Positions 12,095 through 53,366 of a DNA stretch of 64,000 nt are shown here, in pieces; within the stretch, counting starts at the first letter, position 1, and each line of letters opens with the position of its first letter. The notes beneath the pieces were generated by a model. That model saw only the letters and a program-made list of their open reading frames with translations, was not told the origin of the DNA and searched no databases. The stretch is from Octopus sinensis. Lineage: Eukaryota. Both the position numbers and the translations under genes were made by a program. The stretch is taken from contig NC_042998.1 of the NCBI RefSeq assembly GCF_006345805.1, forward strand, positions 194,680,001 through 194,744,000. Direction: 5' to 3'.

Positions 12095-12194
12095 NNNNNN
12101 NNNNNNNNNNNNNNNNNNNNNNNNNNNNNNNNNNNNNNNNNNNNNNNNNNNNNNNNNNNNNNNNNNNNNNNNNNNNNNNNNNNNNNNNNNNNNN
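12095..12194. other. Assembly gap (100 N)
   Basis: Run of exactly 100 n; true size unknown. Confidence 1.
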
Positions 12195-13020
12195 AAAGAG
12201 AGAGAGAAAGTTAATGCTTGTGTAGGTATGAGAGAGTGGGGAGACTCAAATCGTGAGAGGGAGAGAGCACGAGGGAGAGTGAGAGAGCGCGAGGGAGAGT
12301 GAGAGAGCGCGAGGGAGAGGGAGAGAGCGCGAGGGAGAGGGAGAGAGCGCGAGGGAGAGGGAGAGAGCGCGAGGGAGAGGGAGAGAGCGCGCGGAGAGGG
12401 AGAGAGCGCGAGGAAGAGGGAGAGAGCGCGAGGAAGAGGGAGAGAGCGCGAGGAAGAGGGAGCTAGAGAGCGAGGAAGAGGGAGCTAGAGAGGGAGGAAG
12501 GGGGAGCTAGAGAGGGAGGAAGGGGGAGCTAGAGAGGGAGGAAGAGGGAGCTAGAGAGGGAGAAGAGGAGCTAGAGAGGGGGAGAGGGAGATAGAGAGGG
12601 AGGAAGAGGGAGATAGAGAGGGAGGAAGAGGGAGATAGAGAGGGAGGAAGAGGGAGATAGAGAGGGAGGAAGAGGGAGATAGAGAGGGAGGAAGAGGGAG
12701 ATAGAGAGGGAGGAAGAGGGAGATAGAGAGGGAGGAAGAGGGAGATAGAGAGGGAGGAAGAGAGACGGATGAAGAGGGAAAAGAGAGAAGCGAGAGAAAT
12801 AGCGAGAGACTGAAGTGAGAGAGGAGGAGGGAAGACAGAAAGAGAGGAAGAAAAGCTGGAAGGAGAAGAGAAGGAGGGAGAAAGATAGAGGGAGAAAGAA
12901 AGAGGGAGAGAAAGAGGAGATAGGGGTCAGAACTTTGAGCGAGAGCGAGGGAAGAAAAAGACGGATGAAGAGAAGAGAGGGAAGGAGAAAGAAAGAGAGA
13001 GAGAGAAAGAGAGAGAGACT
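12195..13020 (+). repeat. Polypurine GA minisatellite with evolving 20-22 bp units
   Basis: GAGGGAGAGGGAGAGAGCGC units grade into GAGGAAGAGGGAGATAGAGAGG units. Confidence 0.9.
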
Positions 13021-13276
13021 GAGGTCAGAAGTTCCTTGATTCTAAGCCAGGATCCAAAACTGAATCTTGCATTTCTCTTACCAGTTCCTTTAGTTCCGAC
13101 TTTGCTGAACTTGAACGAACTGATTTATTCTTCCAAACTTTCCTTGCTGTTAAATCAGCATAGTTTTTCATTGATGGGAGTTTGTTTTCAACCTTTGAAT
13201 ATTTTCAACCTTTGAATTAAGCGACCCACGCAGTTCAGCCCAAACAATAAAGACAAAACAAATTTTCGGAAACATT

Positions 13277-13282
13277 TTTATT
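13277..13282 (-). terminator. Poly(A) signal AATAAA of the protamine gene
   Basis: AATAAA ~160 nt after the stop codon, followed by a GU/U-rich downstream element (TTTGTTTTGTCTTTATTGTTT). Confidence 0.75.
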
Positions 13283-13442: not shown

Positions 13443-13757
13443 TCATCGTCGCCTCCTTCGGCCGCCCCTCCTTCGTCTTCGCCTTCTCCCCCTCCTTCGT
13501 CCCCTCCTTCGCCCCCTCCTTCGTCCTCTCCTCCTCCCCCTTCTTCCTCTCGATCGTCGCCGTCGTCGTCGCCGTCGTCCACCAATGGAATACACTCGTC
13601 TACGACTTAATCTGCCTCCGTTAAAACTACCATGACTTCTCACACTGGATAAACTGCGCTCTCGTCTTCCGCCACCGACCAGCAGACTCTGCCGGCTCAT
13701 GGATGGGCGTATTGCTCTACGCGTCCTCGAACGCGATGCGTTTTCTTTAACAATCAT
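13443..13757 (-). CDS. Sperm protamine precursor (104 aa; contains Po1/Po2-like 56- and 44-aa Arg-rich products)
   Basis: Intronless ORF MIVKENASRSRTRRAIRPSMSRQSLLVGGG-RRERSLSSVRSHGSFNGG-RLSRRRVYSIGG-RRRRRRRRSRGRRGRRRGRRRGRRRGRRRGRRRRRRRGGRRRRR*. Core is 35 R, 8 G, 1 S with mixed CGA/CGG/AGA/AGG codons. ATG has A at -3; CpG-rich; TATA upstream and AATAAA downstream. Confidence 0.9.
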   Translation of the reverse strand: MIVKENASRSRTRRAIRPSMSRQSLLVGGGRRERSLSSVRSHGSFNGGRLSRRRVYSIGGRRRRRRRRSRGRRGRRRGRRRGRRRGRRRGRRRRRRRGGRRRRR

Positions 13758-13854
13758 CCTTGTGTCTGTCGTCACTCAAGGCTTCCGAAAGTGTCTCACC
13801 CCTCTCTCTCTCTATTGCAGCGAAAGTTAGAGCAAGATTGAAAATCGGTACGAC

Positions 13855-13955
13855 TATGAAGTAACTCGCCGAAAGTCGTGTTTTATATAAGGTATGTGTA
13901 GCACGTGATCTGCCAGATCAAAGATATTATTGGTTGAAAAGAAAGGTCACGTGAC
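13855..13955 (-). promoter_or_regulatory. Protamine gene promoter
   Basis: TATATAAAA 13889-13881, E-box CACGTG 13902-13907, palindrome TGATCTG-C-CAGATCA 13906-13920, CCAAT 13933-13929, GTCACGTGAC 13946-13955; inferred TSS near 13857. Confidence 0.75.
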
Positions 13956-14115: not shown

Positions 14116-14395
14116 GCGCGCGCACACACAAAGGGTTCTTTGAAAGTTCCAGCGTTTCAAGTTCTGACGCAATTCTTTATGACATCACTGGAATTATGAT
14201 TTCCTTTGCGTATGCTCCCCGCCATAGTGTTTTGAAAGGAAAACAAATTCAGTTTCAAGAAATAAAAAAGAAAAAATGTAGGAAATACCTTTTGTGGACA
14301 GACATGATTAGATGCATTCACTTTGTCCATAGCAGCTACTTAAATTATGTTTGGTGGTCGGTAAAGAGGCGCACACACACACGCACATACGTATG

Positions 14396-14429
<34 letters not shown>

Positions 14430-14459
14430 TGTATGTATGTATGTATGTATGTATGTATA

Positions 14460-14893
14460 TCAGGAGGGATGTCAGGAAGGGCATCACTGTTACACTTCCA
14501 GATGGGAAGGGTCTCCCTATGATGCTGACATGCAATGCCTGTGCAAGACCCTGCCTCAGTAAAGCTGGACTCAAGAGTCATCTTCGTAGTCATAAAACGA
14601 GACAGATGAGTGATAGCCTGGCCACTGGTGGTGGTGTAACACACCATACTAATCATATCTGTCAGGCATGTGGAAGAGAGTGTAATTTGGCAAGAGGACT
14701 TAAACGACATGCAAAGGTACATGAAGCCCAGTTACAACTACAGCCGGCTATTACCAGTAAAGGTTTTAGCTGCCAATTTTGTACAAGACATTGTAGATCT
14801 TTAGCTGGGCTAAAAAGTTACATTCGATCACAGCACCGATAACAGTTAAACTTCGTGCAATGGCCATACTCGATAACGAGGTGGCAGCCATCA
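14460..14893 (+). mobile_element. 5'-truncated RTE-type LINE 3' end encoding three C2H2-like zinc fingers, with (TATG)n tail
   Basis: CNACARPCLSKAGLKSHLRSH, CQACGRECNLARGLKRHAKVH and CQFCTRHCRSLAGLKSYIRSQH*; no TGEKP linkers; 3' end shared with 17945-17990. Confidence 0.7.
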
Positions 14894-30835: not shown

Positions 30836-31320
30836 AACACCATCCGAGCGTGGCCATGCCAGCCCCGCCTGGCCATGCCAGCCCCGCCTGGCCATGCCAG
30901 CCCCGCCTGGCCATGCCAGCCCCGCCTGGCCTCCGTACCGGTGGCACGTAAAAAACACCATCCGAGCGTGGCCGTTCGCCAGCCTCGTCTGGCACCTGTG
31001 TCCGTGGCACAAAAAAAAAACACCATCTGAGCATGGCCGTTCGTCAGCCTCGTCTGGCACCTGTGTCCGTGGCACAAAAAAAAACACCATCCGAGCGTGG
31101 CCGTTCACCCGCTTCGTCTGGCACCTGTATCGGTGGCACATAAAAAGCACCCACTACACTCATGGAGTGGTTGACGTTAGGAAGGGCATCCAGCTGTAGA
31201 AACACTGCCAGATCTGACTGGCCTGGTGCAGCCTTCGGGCTTCCCAGACCCCAGTTCAACCGTCCAACCCATGCTAGCATGGAAAGCGGACGCTAAACGA
31301 TGATGATGATGATGATGATG
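30836..31320 (+). mobile_element. Family C element with 5' tandem array of ~60-bp units and a nested 19-bp x4 repeat
   Basis: GTGGCAC.TAAAAA.CACCATCCGAGCGTGGCC units; (TGGCCATGCCAGCCCCGCC)x4 at 30851-30926; (GAT)n tail. Confidence 0.85.
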
Positions 31321-32235: not shown

Positions 32236-34606
32236 GTCTAATCTATTTCTGTATGCATTTAGATTTTGGTGGTGGCCACAGGGAAGATGGTTGGGTGTGA
32301 CAGTTGCTGTTCTTCAGTAGTTATTATTGATGGTGTACTTTCCAGGGCAATGTTTGGGATCACTGAAACCATTAATGTTGCAGAAAACAATGTTTTTAGG
32401 ATATTGTTTGCTCTGGTGTATGGTATATGGGCCTAGATAACTGGTGATGGGTTTTCATGTGGTGACCTCGCCTGGTCCCTGTGCTGGTGGCACGTAAAAA
32501 GCACCATCCGTTCGTGGTCGTTGCCAGCTTCGCCTGGCCCCCGTGCCGGTGGCACATAAAAAGCACCATCCGATCGTGGCCGTTTGCCAGCCTCGTCTGG
32601 CACCTGTGCCGGTGGCACGTAAAAAGCACCCACTACACTCATGGAGAGGTTGGCGTTAGGAAGGGCATCCAGCCGTAGAAACATTGCCAGATCAAACTGG
32701 GCCTGGTGCAGCCTTCTGGCTTCCCAGACCCCAGTTCAACCGTCCAACCCATGCTAGCATGGAAAGCGGACGTTAAATGATGATGATGATGATGATGATG
32801 ATGACAAAGACTGATATTGAATCTTGCTACAGCAACAAACTGTGCCCCTCACATGTTCAGGTGGCTTTTCATTTTTAGAATTTTTGTTTTGTTGTGTAGG
32901 TTTTCTGTGGGACTAGTTTGTGAATAACCTGTTGTGATGGCAGTGTGTTGTTTTATGCTTCTCATAGTTTATGGTCTTTGATTGTAGAGTGATTGAGATC
33001 CCAGGTAGAACTTGGCATTATGTATTGTTTGTACACTTTGGAAGTCTCTATGTGGTTACACAACTGGCCAGAAATTTCAACCAGATCTTCTTTAAATGCT
33101 ACCCTACTGTCTTGAAAAATGGTCAAAGAAACTGGGAACATGAATACTGAAAGTGTCAGTAAGAAGGAATGGTTATGGTTAGAATAGCAGTTTTGCTAGA
33201 ATAGGGATAAATTCTCAGCTTAAGAAATATTTAAGTAGTGTATGGAGGTGTGGAGTGGTGTGTGAAATAGTGTGTGCGGCGAACTGGCTGAAACATTAGC
33301 ACGCTGGGTGAAATGCTTAGCCGTATTTCGTCTGCCGTTATGTTCTGAGTTCAAATTCCGCTGAGGTCAACTTTGCCTTTCATCCTTTCGGGGTTGATGA
33401 ATTAACTACCAGTTATGCACTGGGGTCAATGTTATCGACTTAATCCATTTGTCTGTCCTTGTTTGTCCTCTCTGTGTTTAGCCCTTGTGGGTAGTAAAGA
33501 AATAAGTGTGTGCATGTGTGTTTGTGTGTGGTATGGAGTGGTGTGTAGAAGTGTGATAAGTGCTCTGAATATGTGGAGAGTGATATGTATACATAGTGGC
33601 ATATAGTGATGAGATGTGTAATGGTGCCATCTGAAGTGATGTAGTGGCATGGAATGGTATGGAAGTGTGAAGTGGTGGGGGATGAGTAGTCTGAATATGT
33701 GGAGTGGAGTTGTGTAAGATGTTGGACAGTCCCGATCAACAAAACCTATGACAGAAAGGATTCTTTGAATGACTTTCCAGATACAATCATCCTATCTCTT
33801 TCTATATTTAGGACAACATTGTCCAATACAGCCTTAGTTAGGGTTTGATTTGAGGGAAATTTGGTTTCTATTTATAGCAAGTCAAGCACCTGTATAGAAG
33901 CTGCACTGCTAGCTTGCAGTAGTCCTTTGGTAGTATGTGGAAGTGGGGTGAAGCATGATGTACTGTGTTGTGTATGTGTGCGTGTGTGTGTGTGTCTGTG
34001 TGTAGTGTGGGTGTGATGTTGTTGGGGGAGAAAAGGTAACAATATAAATAAAAGTATGAATCACTGAATGAACAAAAGGAAAAAAATAGATGTAAAAAAA
34101 ATATCACAAAATACATAAATAAATCTAAAAAGAAAGTTTAACATAACAAGATGAAGTAATGGAGAAACTGGTTCATAGAAAAATTGTTGAAGAATGAGAT
34201 ATATTCATTGATTTTTATCGATTTATTTTCTGATCAAAACTCCCTGCAGCAGATGTTTCAGATGTTAGCTTCATTAATGTCTGGGCTATTCAGCTTGACT
34301 CAGTCGAAATGAAAAGATATTCGTACAAGGTTGCATATGATGTACAAAAAACATGGGATGGTCATAGCTGGAACGTCTTTAATTATAGGTTGACTTCATC
34401 GAAGCTGACCTGGGTTAAACAACAACAACAACAACAACCAGAGAATAAAACAGTGATAAAATAGTGATGAATTGCTTAAGAGGTGAAGTACTGAAGGATA
34501 TCCTCAAAAACTTCTCTCTTGTTTGATATTTGCTTCCAAGTAACACATTGATAGCCCTAGTAAAGGGAGTGGTCCAACAGGTTCAGACAAGCCCCTAAGC
34601 AATATT

Positions 34607-35137
34607 GTGGCACGTAAAAAGCACCATCCAAACGTGGCCGATGCCAGTGCCGCCATGTCTGGCTTCTGTGCCGGTGGCATGTGACCTGTTGTGCTTGAGG
34701 AGACCTATTGAGTCAAGTACATCAACATCAAAATAAATATCAAATGGAAATTGTAGTTGTGATACCTGTGCCGGTGGCACGTAAAAAGCACCATCCGAAC
34801 GTGGCCGGTGCCAGCGCCGTCTTGACTGGCACCTGTGCCGGTGGCACGTAAAAAGCACCATCCGAACGTGGCCGGTGCCAGTGCTGCCTTGACTGGCACC
34901 TGTGCTGGTGGCACGTAAAAATCACTAACCGATCGTGGCCACTGCCAGCCTCCCCTGGCACCTGTGCTGGTGGCACATAAAAAGTACTCACTGAGTGGTT
35001 GGCGTTAGGAAGGGCATCCAGCTGTAGAAGCACTGCCAGATCAGACTGGAGCCTGGTGCAACCTCCTGGTTTCCCAGACCCCGGTCGAATCATCCAACCT
35101 GTGCTAGCATGGAAAACGGACGTTAAACGATGATGAT
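34607..35137 (+). mobile_element. Family C element with multiple ~60-bp internal units
   Basis: Repeated GTGCCGGTGGCACGTAAAAAGCACCATCCGAACGTGGCC, then the family C body and GAT tail; a similar copy lies at 32470-32803. Confidence 0.85.
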
Positions 35138-46296: not shown

Positions 46297-49253
46297 TGAA
46301 TACAACATTTTAAAATATCTACGTCGCAGACATGAGGAAACGCTCAGACTTGAGGAATATGAAAGGATGTTAATGAGAACAGATTATTTCCCCTTAATCA
46401 GAAGGAAAAAAAAAAACTTTTATAGACTTGGAGAGGCCTAATGAGCAAATAGGGAGATTCAATTTTCTAGTAAGTGGCGCTTGAAATGGATACATTGAGA
46501 AAACACTTCTTTACAGCTGTTTAATGTGCCAAGCTTCTTATAGTCCTAAAGAATTTTGGTTCTCTCTATGATGCAGATCTTGCAACAGGCACTTTCATTA
46601 ATATACGGGCCTGGATAATCAATTAATTTCCACCTGATATCACATGGGGGTTCCTTAATCTTTGAAGTGTCACATATGGCAGGCCTAGGATGCGATGAAC
46701 CGTTTTTCTGGGTCTCTGAAGGATGACTGGTGGTTAAGAAAATGTTTCTTGAATGAAGTACTTACCAAACCAATATTTTTATAAACATGGGATGTGGCCC
46801 TATTCGCACTCATCGTAACATATGGTGCGGGGTTGGTTATCCCATCAGTGATGAAGATGAATTTTTGGTCCTCATCCGAGGTGGCGGAACTGGGAACAGC
46901 AGATACCTCCTCCAAGTCATTGGTTCTGGATAGGTCGTTATTTCTGGGTGCAGCATTTGCACTCATATTCACATACATTGTGGGCCTGGCCACTCTATCT
47001 GCATCTATAGTTTGTTCATTATCCATGGCAGGGTACTGCGGTCTTTGGTGGCGCTGGTCCGACTTGGTTATCTCTGGGCGTGACAACTATATTGGTTACT
47101 GGTGTGAGACATGGTTAATCTGCTAATAATATTGCTGTTTGATGTTACATTACTGTTATTATAGATATTAGGTCTAGGTATCACCATAGCCTCATAGATA
47201 AACCCTTTAACCTCGCATTGGCCTGCTGCTGAACAGTTATTATACACCCAGCAAGAGCAACCTACCTCCTCCTTTGTATTGTGGGTACTTGATAAAATGC
47301 TTTTTATGTTAGGTGCACAACTAAAGAAGATTTTTAGGTTGTGTGTGTTAAACAAGTGCCTGTACCTATGTGTGTAAAATGTTTTCCCACATAAGTCGTG
47401 ACATTGAATGACAAGGGTGGAGTAAACCAAATGACATTTCTGCAGCTTTTCTTTTTCTGGATGTTAGGGCCAGGCATGTAGGAGATGTAGTCCTTAAACC
47501 CACTCGATGCCAGTGCCTTATTGTAGTAGGGAGCAGCACCATTAAAGATATCTTGGCTCGAGGATAGATTCAAGATCCTTTCACTATGTTTTGAAAACTA
47601 AGGGGTGGTGGGGTGGAAGGAGGCTGCGCTAATATAAGACAGTCTCTCGTTTGGTTTGTGATAGGGCCTGTATGTACCAGAGCCTAGGTCTAAAAACATC
47701 TACTGTGGTGAGATTAGTCGCAATGGTGACCTTGAGTCCCATTGAGCCTAAGGTGCTAATTAGGTCCTTTTTGAGTCTAATGTGTGGCTGTTGGCTCCTC
47801 TAGAGATGGCTAGGGCATCATCTCTGTAGAAGCTGAAGAAGATCAGAGGAAATCTCTTCTCTAAGGTGTCCAGGATGTACAGTCCGATAAGATCACAGAC
47901 GTTGGGGCAGTCATATGCTCCCATAGCTACATCAATGGAGCCCTCGGGATCAGATTGCTTGACCCAAGTAAAATCTTTGCTGGCATGCATGATGACTAAC
48001 ATTACTATCACTAATATCTGTGAAGCCCTTGGCAAAGGAACGTGCCTTCAATAAAAACTCCTTAGAAAAAGATGGATAAAAGTCAACAATGTGAAACTGT
48101 GTAAATCTAACCCTGCCTCTGTCCTGGTTGGAAAAGAACCACGAGGTTATTTCATTGGTGCTATGCCACAGAAGGAAGCTCATGTGTCTTCTTATGACAT
48201 CATTAATCCTCCTCAGTATATATTTACTCGCCTGACCAATCTCAGACTTGGCTAGGTTCATCAGGCAGCATTTGGGATTAGAGGCAAAATTTGGCTTGTG
48301 ATCTTTCAGAGTTATAAAAGCATTTCTCTTGGCCAAGATCTCTACTCTGCCTGCTATACCTAGATTAACTGCTATTTGTTTAGCCTCACAGTTATTGTTA
48401 TTGTGTGGAGAGAAGTCTGTCTGTATTTTTGTATGATTGAATAATTTAAAAGCCAATGTAAATGAACGCATCTATCATGTATAAGTTCTTAGTCTTATCC
48501 GAGAAGATTAAGGACCTGTTAGAGTTTCTTATTTTATAACTTCACAGAGTTTGCAAGGGGAAAAGGACTTATGGAATTTTGGCCTGGGTATTATGCTCAG
48601 TAGGTCTGCTTTGAAGGCCTTGAGTTTCTCGATTCTAGATGGGAACTTCCAAGACTTGATACCTATGTATTAGCCTCAGAAGGTGGCGTGCTTTGATCAT
48701 AGAAAAACACCTTCCATCTCATAAGTCTTATAAGGTCTATCATTTTCTCCAGTAACATTTCGTGTAGAATTCATTAGAAGGTATAGGGATTCTTTTGTAG
48801 AATATCCTAAATCGAAATGTTCCATGTTATCCTTGAGGTAGCAATTGATAATACGTAGAAGCGCAGGTCTCCGTATAGTAATCAAATGTAGACGATGTAG
48901 TGGACTTCATAAGACACTGTAACCAGGTTGTGGATAGACAGTTAATAAAAAACACGTATCAGAAAGAAGCACATCATCATCATCGTTTAATGTTCGCTTT
49001 CCATGCTAGCATGGGTTGGATGGTTCGACTGGGGTCTGGGAAGCCAGGAGGCTGCACCAGGCCCAGTCTGATCTGGCAGTGTTTCTACAGCTGGATGCCC
49101 TTCCTAATGCCAACCACTCCGTGAGTGTAGTGAGTGCTGTTTACGTGCCACTGGCACAGGTGCCAGGGGAGGCTGGCAACGGCCACAATCGGTTGGTGCT
49201 TTTTACGTGCCACCGGCACGGACATTCTAAGAAATAGAGCAGTAGTTATTACA

Positions 49254-51842: not shown

Positions 51843-53366
51843 AATGCAGCCAGCTTAGAGCATGCAGTAAAAAATGGCATTTTGTCCAAGTTTAAGTTTC
51901 GACCTCCCATTCCACCGAGGTCAACCGTGCCCCCCATCCCCTGTGGATCAACAGAACAAGCACCAACCGAGCAATGGGGTCGATGTCACTGACTATCCAC
52001 CTCCATATATTTATATGTATATCGTAGCTGTGGCCAGTATTCCCTGACTGGCTCCCATGCCAGTGGCACATAAAAAGCACCATCTGAACGTGGCCAGTGC
52101 CAGTACCTCCTGACTGGCCCCCATGCTGATGGCATGTAAAAAGCACTATCTGATCGTGATCGATGCCAGGCCTACGTGACTGGCTACTGTGCCGGTGGCA
52201 CATAAAAAGCACCCACTACATTCTCAGAGTGGTTGGCATTAGGAAGGGCATCTAGCTGTAGAAACATTGAAAGATCAGAATGGAACCAGGTGCAGCCGCT
52301 GGCTTTCTAGACCTCAGTCAAACCATCCAACCCATGCCAGCATGGAAAACGGATGTTAAACAATGATGATGTCTCTTTTATTTTTTATCTTGTTTCATTC
52401 ATTAGACTGTGGCCACACTGGGATATCACCTTGAAGAAATTTTTTGTTGAATGAACTGACCCCAGAACTTATTATTTTTAATAAATTCTATCAGTCTGTT
52501 TTGCCAAACTGCTAAGTTATACGGATGTAAACACATCAACACTGGTTGTCAAGCAGTGCTGGGCAACAAACAGACAAAGATATACACATCATCATCTTTT
52601 AATGTCCGCTTTTCATGCTAGCATGGGTTGGACCATTTGAATGAGGTCTGGTGAACCAGATGGCTGCACCAGGCTCCAATCTGATCTGGCAGAGTTTCTA
52701 CAGCTGGATGCCCTTCCTAATGCCAACCACTCCAAGAGTGTAGTGGGTGCTTTTACGTGCCACCGACACAAAGGCCAGTCAGATGGTACTGGCAACGGCC
52801 ACGCTCAAATGGTGCTTTTTACACACCACCTGCACAGGAGCCAGTCCAGCGGCACTGGCAACAACCTCGCTTGAATGTTTTTTCATGTGCCATCAGCACA
52901 AGTGCTAGTAAGGTGACGCATATAATGATCACACTCGAATGGTTTTTTTTAACATGCCATCGGCATGGAGGCCAGCTTGTTGCTCTGGCAACGATCTCAC
53001 TCGTATGGTATATATATATATATATATATATATACACGCGATGGGCTTCTTTCCATTCCTGCTTACCAAATCCACTCACAAGGATTTGGTTGACCTTAAG
53101 CCATAATAGAAGACACTTGTCTAAGATTCCATTCAGTGGGCCTGAGCCTGGAATCCTATGGATGAATAACAGACTTCTTACCACACAGCACACCTGCATC
53201 CATTTTCCATGTCAGCATGAGTTTGACAGGAGCTGGCAAGCTGGAGAGTTGCACCAGGCTCCAACTATATGTTTTGGCATCATTTCTACACCTGGATACC
53301 CTTCCTAATACCAGTAACTCTGCAGAGTGTATTGGGTGCTTTTTACATGACACCAGCAGAGGTATG

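Follow-up and report, generated by a model that had tools for sequence, protein, structure and literature searches.

Trimming of protamine precursors occurs in mammals, insects and molluscs; to our knowledge, few of the proteases that carry it out have been identified. In cephalopods, the pro-protamines of squid and cuttlefish reportedly carry a cleaved N-terminal leader with the junction after Gly-Gly (work attributed to Wouters-Tyrou, 1995); these decapod precursors are said to have a leader about 20 residues long with a single junction, in contrast with the three junctions and 60 residues of the octopus protein described here. The sperm protamines of Octopus vulgaris, Po1 (56 aa) and Po2 (44 aa), were reportedly sequenced by Gimenez-Bonafe et al. 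in 2004, Po1 being, as the account goes, Po2 with a 12-residue N-terminal extension, and Po2 being about 79% Arg and made only of Arg, Gly and Ser. In mouse, the PRM2 precursor is successively cleaved over days during condensation (PMC9273070). Mammalian protamine 2 (cP2 plus mP2) has a conserved leader and an N-terminal domain successively cleaved during condensation, likewise as predicted for the octopus protein, but its printed cP2 peptide holds no Gly-Gly, no sequence relation is detectable between the two proteins, and the word "protease" is absent from the main text of that article (PMC9273070). Other papers describe N-terminal cleavage of protamine precursors as common in vertebrates and invertebrates, squid included, with mention of a Loligo protamine precursor (PMC12216123), and discuss sequential cleavage as a trigger of chromatin patterning (PMC13251019; PMC11607694). 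Stepwise protamine trimming is therefore already known (PMC9273070, PMC13251019), and the initial annotation went too far in presenting a multi-step Gly-Gly cascade as new; what stands of that proposal is a protamine precursor whose GG|R junctions, which persist in relatives, coincide with upward steps in Arg density. The distinctive point here is that one and the same dipeptide closes every predicted step.

The gene in question lies in a 64-kb stretch of Octopus sinensis DNA (64,000 nucleotides, hereafter the window), of which it is the sole Arg-rich open reading frame (ORF). We put at roughly one half the probability of our overall explanation, namely that it encodes a protamine precursor whose leader is removed stepwise at Gly-Gly|Arg bonds by a host protease reading Gly-Gly. 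The components of this explanation are of unequal strength and are graded below; the features on which they rest are collected in the table.

Features of the predicted protamine precursor gene (window coordinates)
Feature	Position	Strand	Basis
Predicted protamine precursor ORF, intronless, 104 aa (60-aa leader + 44-aa Arg-rich domain)	13443..13757	(-)	ORF translation
Leader segment 1, aa 1-30, ends LLVGGG; 6 Arg, 6 Ser/Thr/Tyr; cut at its end predicted	13668..13757	(-)	ORF translation
GG site 1, G28-G30, then R31	13668..13676	(-)	translation; bond ambiguous
Leader segment 2, aa 31-48, ends SFNGG	13614..13667	(-)	ORF translation
GG site 2, residues 47-48	13614..13619	(-)	translation
Leader segment 3, aa 49-60, ends YSIGG	13578..13613	(-)	ORF translation
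GG site 3, residues 59-60	13578..13583	(-)	translation
Predicted mature domain, aa 61-104, built from a 12-nt repeat	13446..13577	(-)	translation
Fourth GG, residues 98-99, then Arg	13461..13466	(-)	translation; inside mature domain
TATA box (TATATAAAA)	13881..13889	(-)	read by eye
AATAAA polyadenylation signal	13277..13282	(-)	motif scan

The gene is present as a single copy in genome G000 (one match each by DNA and by protein search), and no second protamine copy was found in the 20 kb preceding the window start or in the remaining window. Its first ATG has an A at position -3; M20 was considered as an alternative start and discarded because it is replaced by Glu in one of the relatives (X9). 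Upstream of the TATA box, a motif scan located CACGTG boxes starting at 13953 and 13907 and a CCAAT box at 13933, the two CACGTG palindromes flanking the CCAAT box. The protamine stretch, or part of it, is carried by 20 of 24 listed sequencing runs (11 organisms), none of them recorded as RNA. Contigs were compared for four of the 24 runs (X3, X9, X10 and X13), their RNA nature being a guess. Those of X3, X9 and X10 (three of the four runs) end at 13843, 13838 and 13844, that is, at a distance of 37-43 nt downstream of the TATA box. On the other side, the X10 and X9 contigs stop at 13274 and 13285, by the poly(A) signal, and both span the ORF without any splice joint. These ends look like mRNA ends and would then outline an intronless mRNA, if the contigs are indeed RNA.

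Several other features occur in the surroundings of the gene. Observed/expected CpG is 1.54 in the protamine coding region, compared with 0.41 for the whole window. An assembly gap (100 N) and, after it, a 22-nt GA-rich satellite occupy 12095-13018, starting about 0.4 kb downstream of the protamine stop codon. Elsewhere in the window, 59782-59498 (-) holds the start of an ORF with a DEDDh-type exonuclease motif, which we take to be TREX-like and which matched Pfam RNase_T below the cut-off (E=0.002); 55553-55029 (-) might be a later exon and has no Pfam match. Short frames at 1430-1723, 14333-14842 and 47950-48471 resemble, by eye, decayed pieces of LINE reverse transcriptase or zinc fingers, and four arrays of related 62-67-nt units (30950-31146, 32466-32630, 34764-34984 and 52043-52213) look like one dispersed repeat family.

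Typical protamines contain 60-80% Arg in clusters split by neutral residues (PMC3073880), and the C-terminal domain of the octopus protein falls within this definition, its 44 residues being 35 Arg (79.5%), with 8 Gly and 1 Ser as spacers. It has no Tyr, in contrast with the 4-5 Tyr given for squid Sp1/Sp2 (PMC3073880). We consider it very likely that the 104-aa protein is a protamine precursor, and likely that the main protamine of octopus sperm derives from it. The last 56 and the last 44 residues presumably correspond to Po1 and Po2: the lengths agree, 79.5% Arg compares with the reported value of about 79%, and the composition matches. R49 would then be the N-terminus of Po1, and residues 49-60 its 12-residue extension. 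Compared with Po1 and Po2, the gene product extends the 56-aa form upstream by 48 residues, with Gly-Gly right before the N-terminus of that form, and has a third junction. If this correspondence holds, cuts 2 and 3 follow from N-termini already on record, which leaves cut 1 as the sole new prediction.

Direct searches for related proteins returned little. None of the exact 104-, 56- and 44-aa sequences (0/3) was in the protein collection, and no match came from homologue searches in which the query was the entire 104-aa protein, its residues 1-63, or residues 1-40 of the 56-aa piece, because low complexity defeats such searches. Two kinds of hit were set aside: a 958-aa repeat protein, the sole match in a representative library, was rejected as due to chance, and two bacterial clusters scoring 0.79 in an Atlas search were below the useful range. 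At the DNA level, a pattern of Gly-Gly plus Arg codons matched genome G000 351 times, against 179 times for the reversed control, mostly in microsatellites among the 100 matches listed. No convincing second protamine gene was found in 30 loci drawn from these 351 matches together with two stretches of C3. The locus L036 (G000:C3:85208500-85218400) comprises three or more units of about 3.2 kb in tandem, most of whose blocks are 90-100% alike, around a triplet-repeat tract reading as runs of Thr and Pro; it is not a protamine. The literature searched, which left out the primary cephalopod papers, yielded no description of this gene, nor of a protease that cuts protamines at Gly-Gly.

The ORF might in principle be a chance reading of a CpG-rich simple repeat rather than a gene, as it has no Pfam family (0 found) and no protein homologue, and as Arg-rich pseudo-ORFs derived from microsatellites occur throughout this genome. 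This explanation is largely refuted and we give it hardly any credence: the ORF uses all six Arg codons in mixture, unlike the common microsatellite pseudo-ORFs of the genome, its TATA box and AATAAA signal coincide with contig ends, and the relatives show synonymous changes and length changes that keep the frame. We conclude that this is very likely a real gene, and a probably unannotated one.

The three GG|Arg junctions that the initial annotation saw dividing the protein into 30+18+12+44 residues are confirmed as a sequence motif, the cuts themselves being predicted, and so is the climb in Arg density along the predicted series of species: the 104-, 74-, 56- and 44-aa forms would have Arg fractions of 0.47, 0.58, 0.70 and 0.795, the successive segments having 0.20, 0.22, 0.33 and 0.80. 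Each of the four GG runs in the protein (after residues 30, 48, 60 and 99) precedes Arg, and the three leader runs hold seven of the eight Gly of residues 1-61; the leader also holds 14 of the 15 Ser/Thr/Tyr of the whole protein. In 200,000 composition shuffles, at least three GG+R occurred in residues 1-61 with P=2.4e-4, at least three GG runs irrespective of Arg with P=0.012, and at least four GG+R in the whole protein with P=0.009, all of these post hoc values being optimistic because the pattern was chosen after the sequence was seen. The cluster is thus unlikely to arise from composition alone, which is supportive of the ladder without being exact. P1' is Arg at all three sites, in dibasic form at sites 1 and 3 (G|RR) and monobasic at site 2 (G|RL). 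By contrast, P4-P3 differ at every site: V-G or L-V at site 1, where three Gly leave the bond ambiguous (G29|G30 or G30|R31), F-N at site 2 and S-I at site 3.

Cuts after G48 and G60 are highly probable, and a cut at site 1 is favored to a lesser degree. A doubtful alternative is that only sites 2 and 3, or a single site, are used, or that an exopeptidase or the proteasome trims the leader and pauses at Arg blocks, site 1 then being a hinge or relic and the 74-aa species not existing. We know of no product starting at R31, Arg density is nearly flat across site 1 (0.20 to 0.22), and the relative X9 has a 3-letter gap in or beside this site, all of which speak for such partial use. The same can be said of the uncut GG hinges that are normal in protamines (PMC6523547): salmine ends RRGGRRRR, as does the octopus mature domain, and GG|R alone is hence no cleavage signal. 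This mature domain contains six single G|R bonds besides the fourth GG|R (G98-G99). On the other hand, site 1 has the most hydrophobic upstream run and conforms best to LXGG, resembling in this the single junction of decapods, and the clustering of GG+R exceeds chance. We retain stepwise removal at all three sites as the preferred reading.

Comparison with relatives is consistent with this reading, but it does not decide on cleavage. X3 is identical to the window over 13559-13843. In X9, X10 and X13, no substitution falls within the seven leader Gly codons among the variants listed (three substitution rows and 19 indel rows stand outside that list), whereas leader residues 8, 15, 20, 36, 42, 45 and 51 change across these three runs in the same list; F45, the P4 residue of site 2, is replaced by Leu in X10 and X13. 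Depth points to a loss of three letters in X9 at some place within 13666-13687, and any single 3-letter gap within this bin leaves GG|R in place when worked out by hand. Leader length is constant within about one codon, while the mature domain varies by whole repeat units, from 44 aa in the window to about 36 aa in X9 (24 letters missing, as seen in depth bins) and 28 aa in X10 (84 letters replaced by 36). The conservation of GG sites to which the initial annotation had looked is thus borne out insofar as the sites persist in three diverged relatives, but this persistence is not significant: the eight non-synonymous base changes, distributed among 135 sites, would miss the 14 Gly sites with P=0.41. 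For the fourth GG, too, the variants listed for X9 and X10 contain no change. We accordingly rejected the argument that GG conservation proves cleavage, both for this P value and because the supposedly spared fourth GG is equally conserved; this fourth GG is the C-terminal RRGG|R that the initial annotation held to be spared.

These features suggest the following course of events. The precursor would be made in spermatids and deposited on spermatid DNA, where its phosphorylatable and weakly charged leader would dilute the charge and damp condensation. A host enzyme would then trim this leader stepwise at GG|R, so that the Arg content climbs from 47% through 58% and 70% to 80% and charge density rises with each cut. 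Within the Arg domain itself, G|R and GG|R bonds would survive by being DNA-bound and by having no run of non-basic residues upstream.

As to the enzyme, we lean towards one that reads the Gly-Gly itself. The main alternative, less favored, accepts the same cuts and has them made by an enzyme reading the P1' Arg, such as an N-arginine endopeptidase (e.g., nardilysin, M16A) or another basic-site protease, the Gly-Gly being a flexible DNA-free linker that exposes the bond. The P1' Arg at 3/3 sites, dibasic at sites 1 and 3, fits such an enzyme, as does the lack of a common feature at P3-P4. Moreover, genome G000 encodes two multi-exon M16A-type genes (on C15 and C19; the analysis does not distinguish between IDE and nardilysin), and nardilysin is present in late mammalian spermatids. 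However, site 2 is monobasic, nine other X|RR bonds would need to be spared (T12|R13 and S51|R52 in the leader and seven G|RR in the mature domain), and the occurrence of two Gly rather than one at all three leader junctions is left unexplained.

Among proteases that cut after Gly-Gly, the adenovirus enzyme adenain offers a parallel in working, if the octopus cuts are real, as it cleaves Arg-rich DNA-condensing precursors, pVII and pMu, after Gly-Gly (PMC7998265). The initial annotation extended this parallel to the motif, where it fails: the adenain consensus is (M/I/L)XGG-X or (M/I/L)XGX-G (PMC7998265), and the M/I/L that it wants at P4 is found at none of the three GG|R bonds in this genome, site 3 having Ser at this position; there is no sequence relation to pVII or pMu either. 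The sole match to the consensus in the protein is L26-V27-G28-G29|G30, whose product would be 75 aa and not 74 aa, and site 2 fits only in X10 and X13, thanks to the F45L change. A further suggestion was that a Maverick/Polinton element supplied the protease (adenain, family C5) by co-option. Profile searches of G000, weak tests in themselves, matched 0/7 candidates for the C5 protease (PF00770; control silent, 0/14 genomes), 0/4 for pPolB (PF03175; control 0/14 genomes) and 0/32 for the A32 ATPase (PF04665; control 1/14 genomes); for PF00770 and PF03175 absence is not demonstrated, because the control matched in none of the 14 genomes. The consensus fit of site 2 in two relatives, the published statements that pVII mimics protamine and that adenain also cuts some non-consensus sites (PMC7998265) and its activity on Arg-rich substrates all speak for such a co-option, whereas the misfit of the 3 GG|R bonds and the empty profile searches speak against it; we judge it very improbable.

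Our best guess is that the enzyme would most plausibly be a host cysteine protease of the SENP/Ulp1 or deubiquitinase (DUB) type; taken separately, membership in clan CE is a tentative assignment, and the deubiquitinase type is more doubtful still. SUMO and ubiquitin precursors are cut after Gly-Gly in the nucleus by SENP/Ulp1 (C48) proteases or DUBs, and such enzymes are encoded in G000. By contrast with the octopus protein, in which no ubiquitin-like (beta-grasp) fold was detected by Pfam and whose segments preceding each GG are 12-30 aa long and Arg/Ser-rich, these precursors have a beta-grasp domain before the Gly-Gly, and the piece that they keep is the one ending in GG, whereas the product kept here would be the C-terminal piece. 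As a rule, SENPs and DUBs act on substrates that carry a folded ubiquitin-like domain, which Arg/Ser-rich segments of 12-30 residues cannot provide.

The C48 profile search of G000 gave 3 matches among 16 candidates. The best is an intact intronless SENP1/2-like ORF of 864 aa (G000:C5:127995666-127998260, equal to L003:757-3351 (+)), with a SENP1-like domain in mid-protein (residues 215-428; PF02902 E=7.9e-39; best PDB match SENP1, E=2.3e-61) and 436 further residues without Pfam match. A spliced SENP1/2-like paralogue lies on C10, and its domain is 51% identical to that of the C5 copy (109/212, over six exons picked by alignment score). In both genes the catalytic His, Asp and Cys align with those of SENP1 and are intact. 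The lack of introns suggests that the C5 copy is an old retrogene that has been kept intact, and retrogenes are often expressed in testis. Its catalytic domain has a net charge of -7, against +4 in the spliced C10 parent. Two residues are inserted ahead of the catalytic His, a run of acidic residues follows the YYDS motif, and a Glu precedes the catalytic Cys; in SENP1/2 structures, the corresponding loops lie towards the substrate residues downstream of the cut bond. Such an acid-shifted SENP would suit an Arg-rich substrate. None of the three possible start choices of this ORF (0/3) is present in the protein collection. Two further C48-like stretches, at G000:C8695:100242-100945 (-) and G000:C1794:1038088-1038363 (-), have internal stop codons and are probably decayed. 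That the intronless copy might be a spermatid retrogene adapted to cleave an unfolded, Arg-rich substrate at Gly-Gly|Arg, a dedicated offshoot of the SUMO proteases that would mature the protamine of cephalopods, is an improbable idea.

The N-termini reported for Po1 and Po2 and those that we predict would all follow Gly-Gly, an unusually clean recognition motif for a precursor, so that the class of the enzyme can be determined directly with short peptides, GG mutants and inhibitors of each protease class. The full-length gene also provides the 48 residues that would escape sequencing of sperm proteins. In itself the ladder would be a modest addition to a known theme, but a SENP retrogene as the enzyme would be a real surprise: if that reading were true, it would name a protamine-processing enzyme and show that a host protease of clan CE had converged on the role played by adenain in adenovirus cores.
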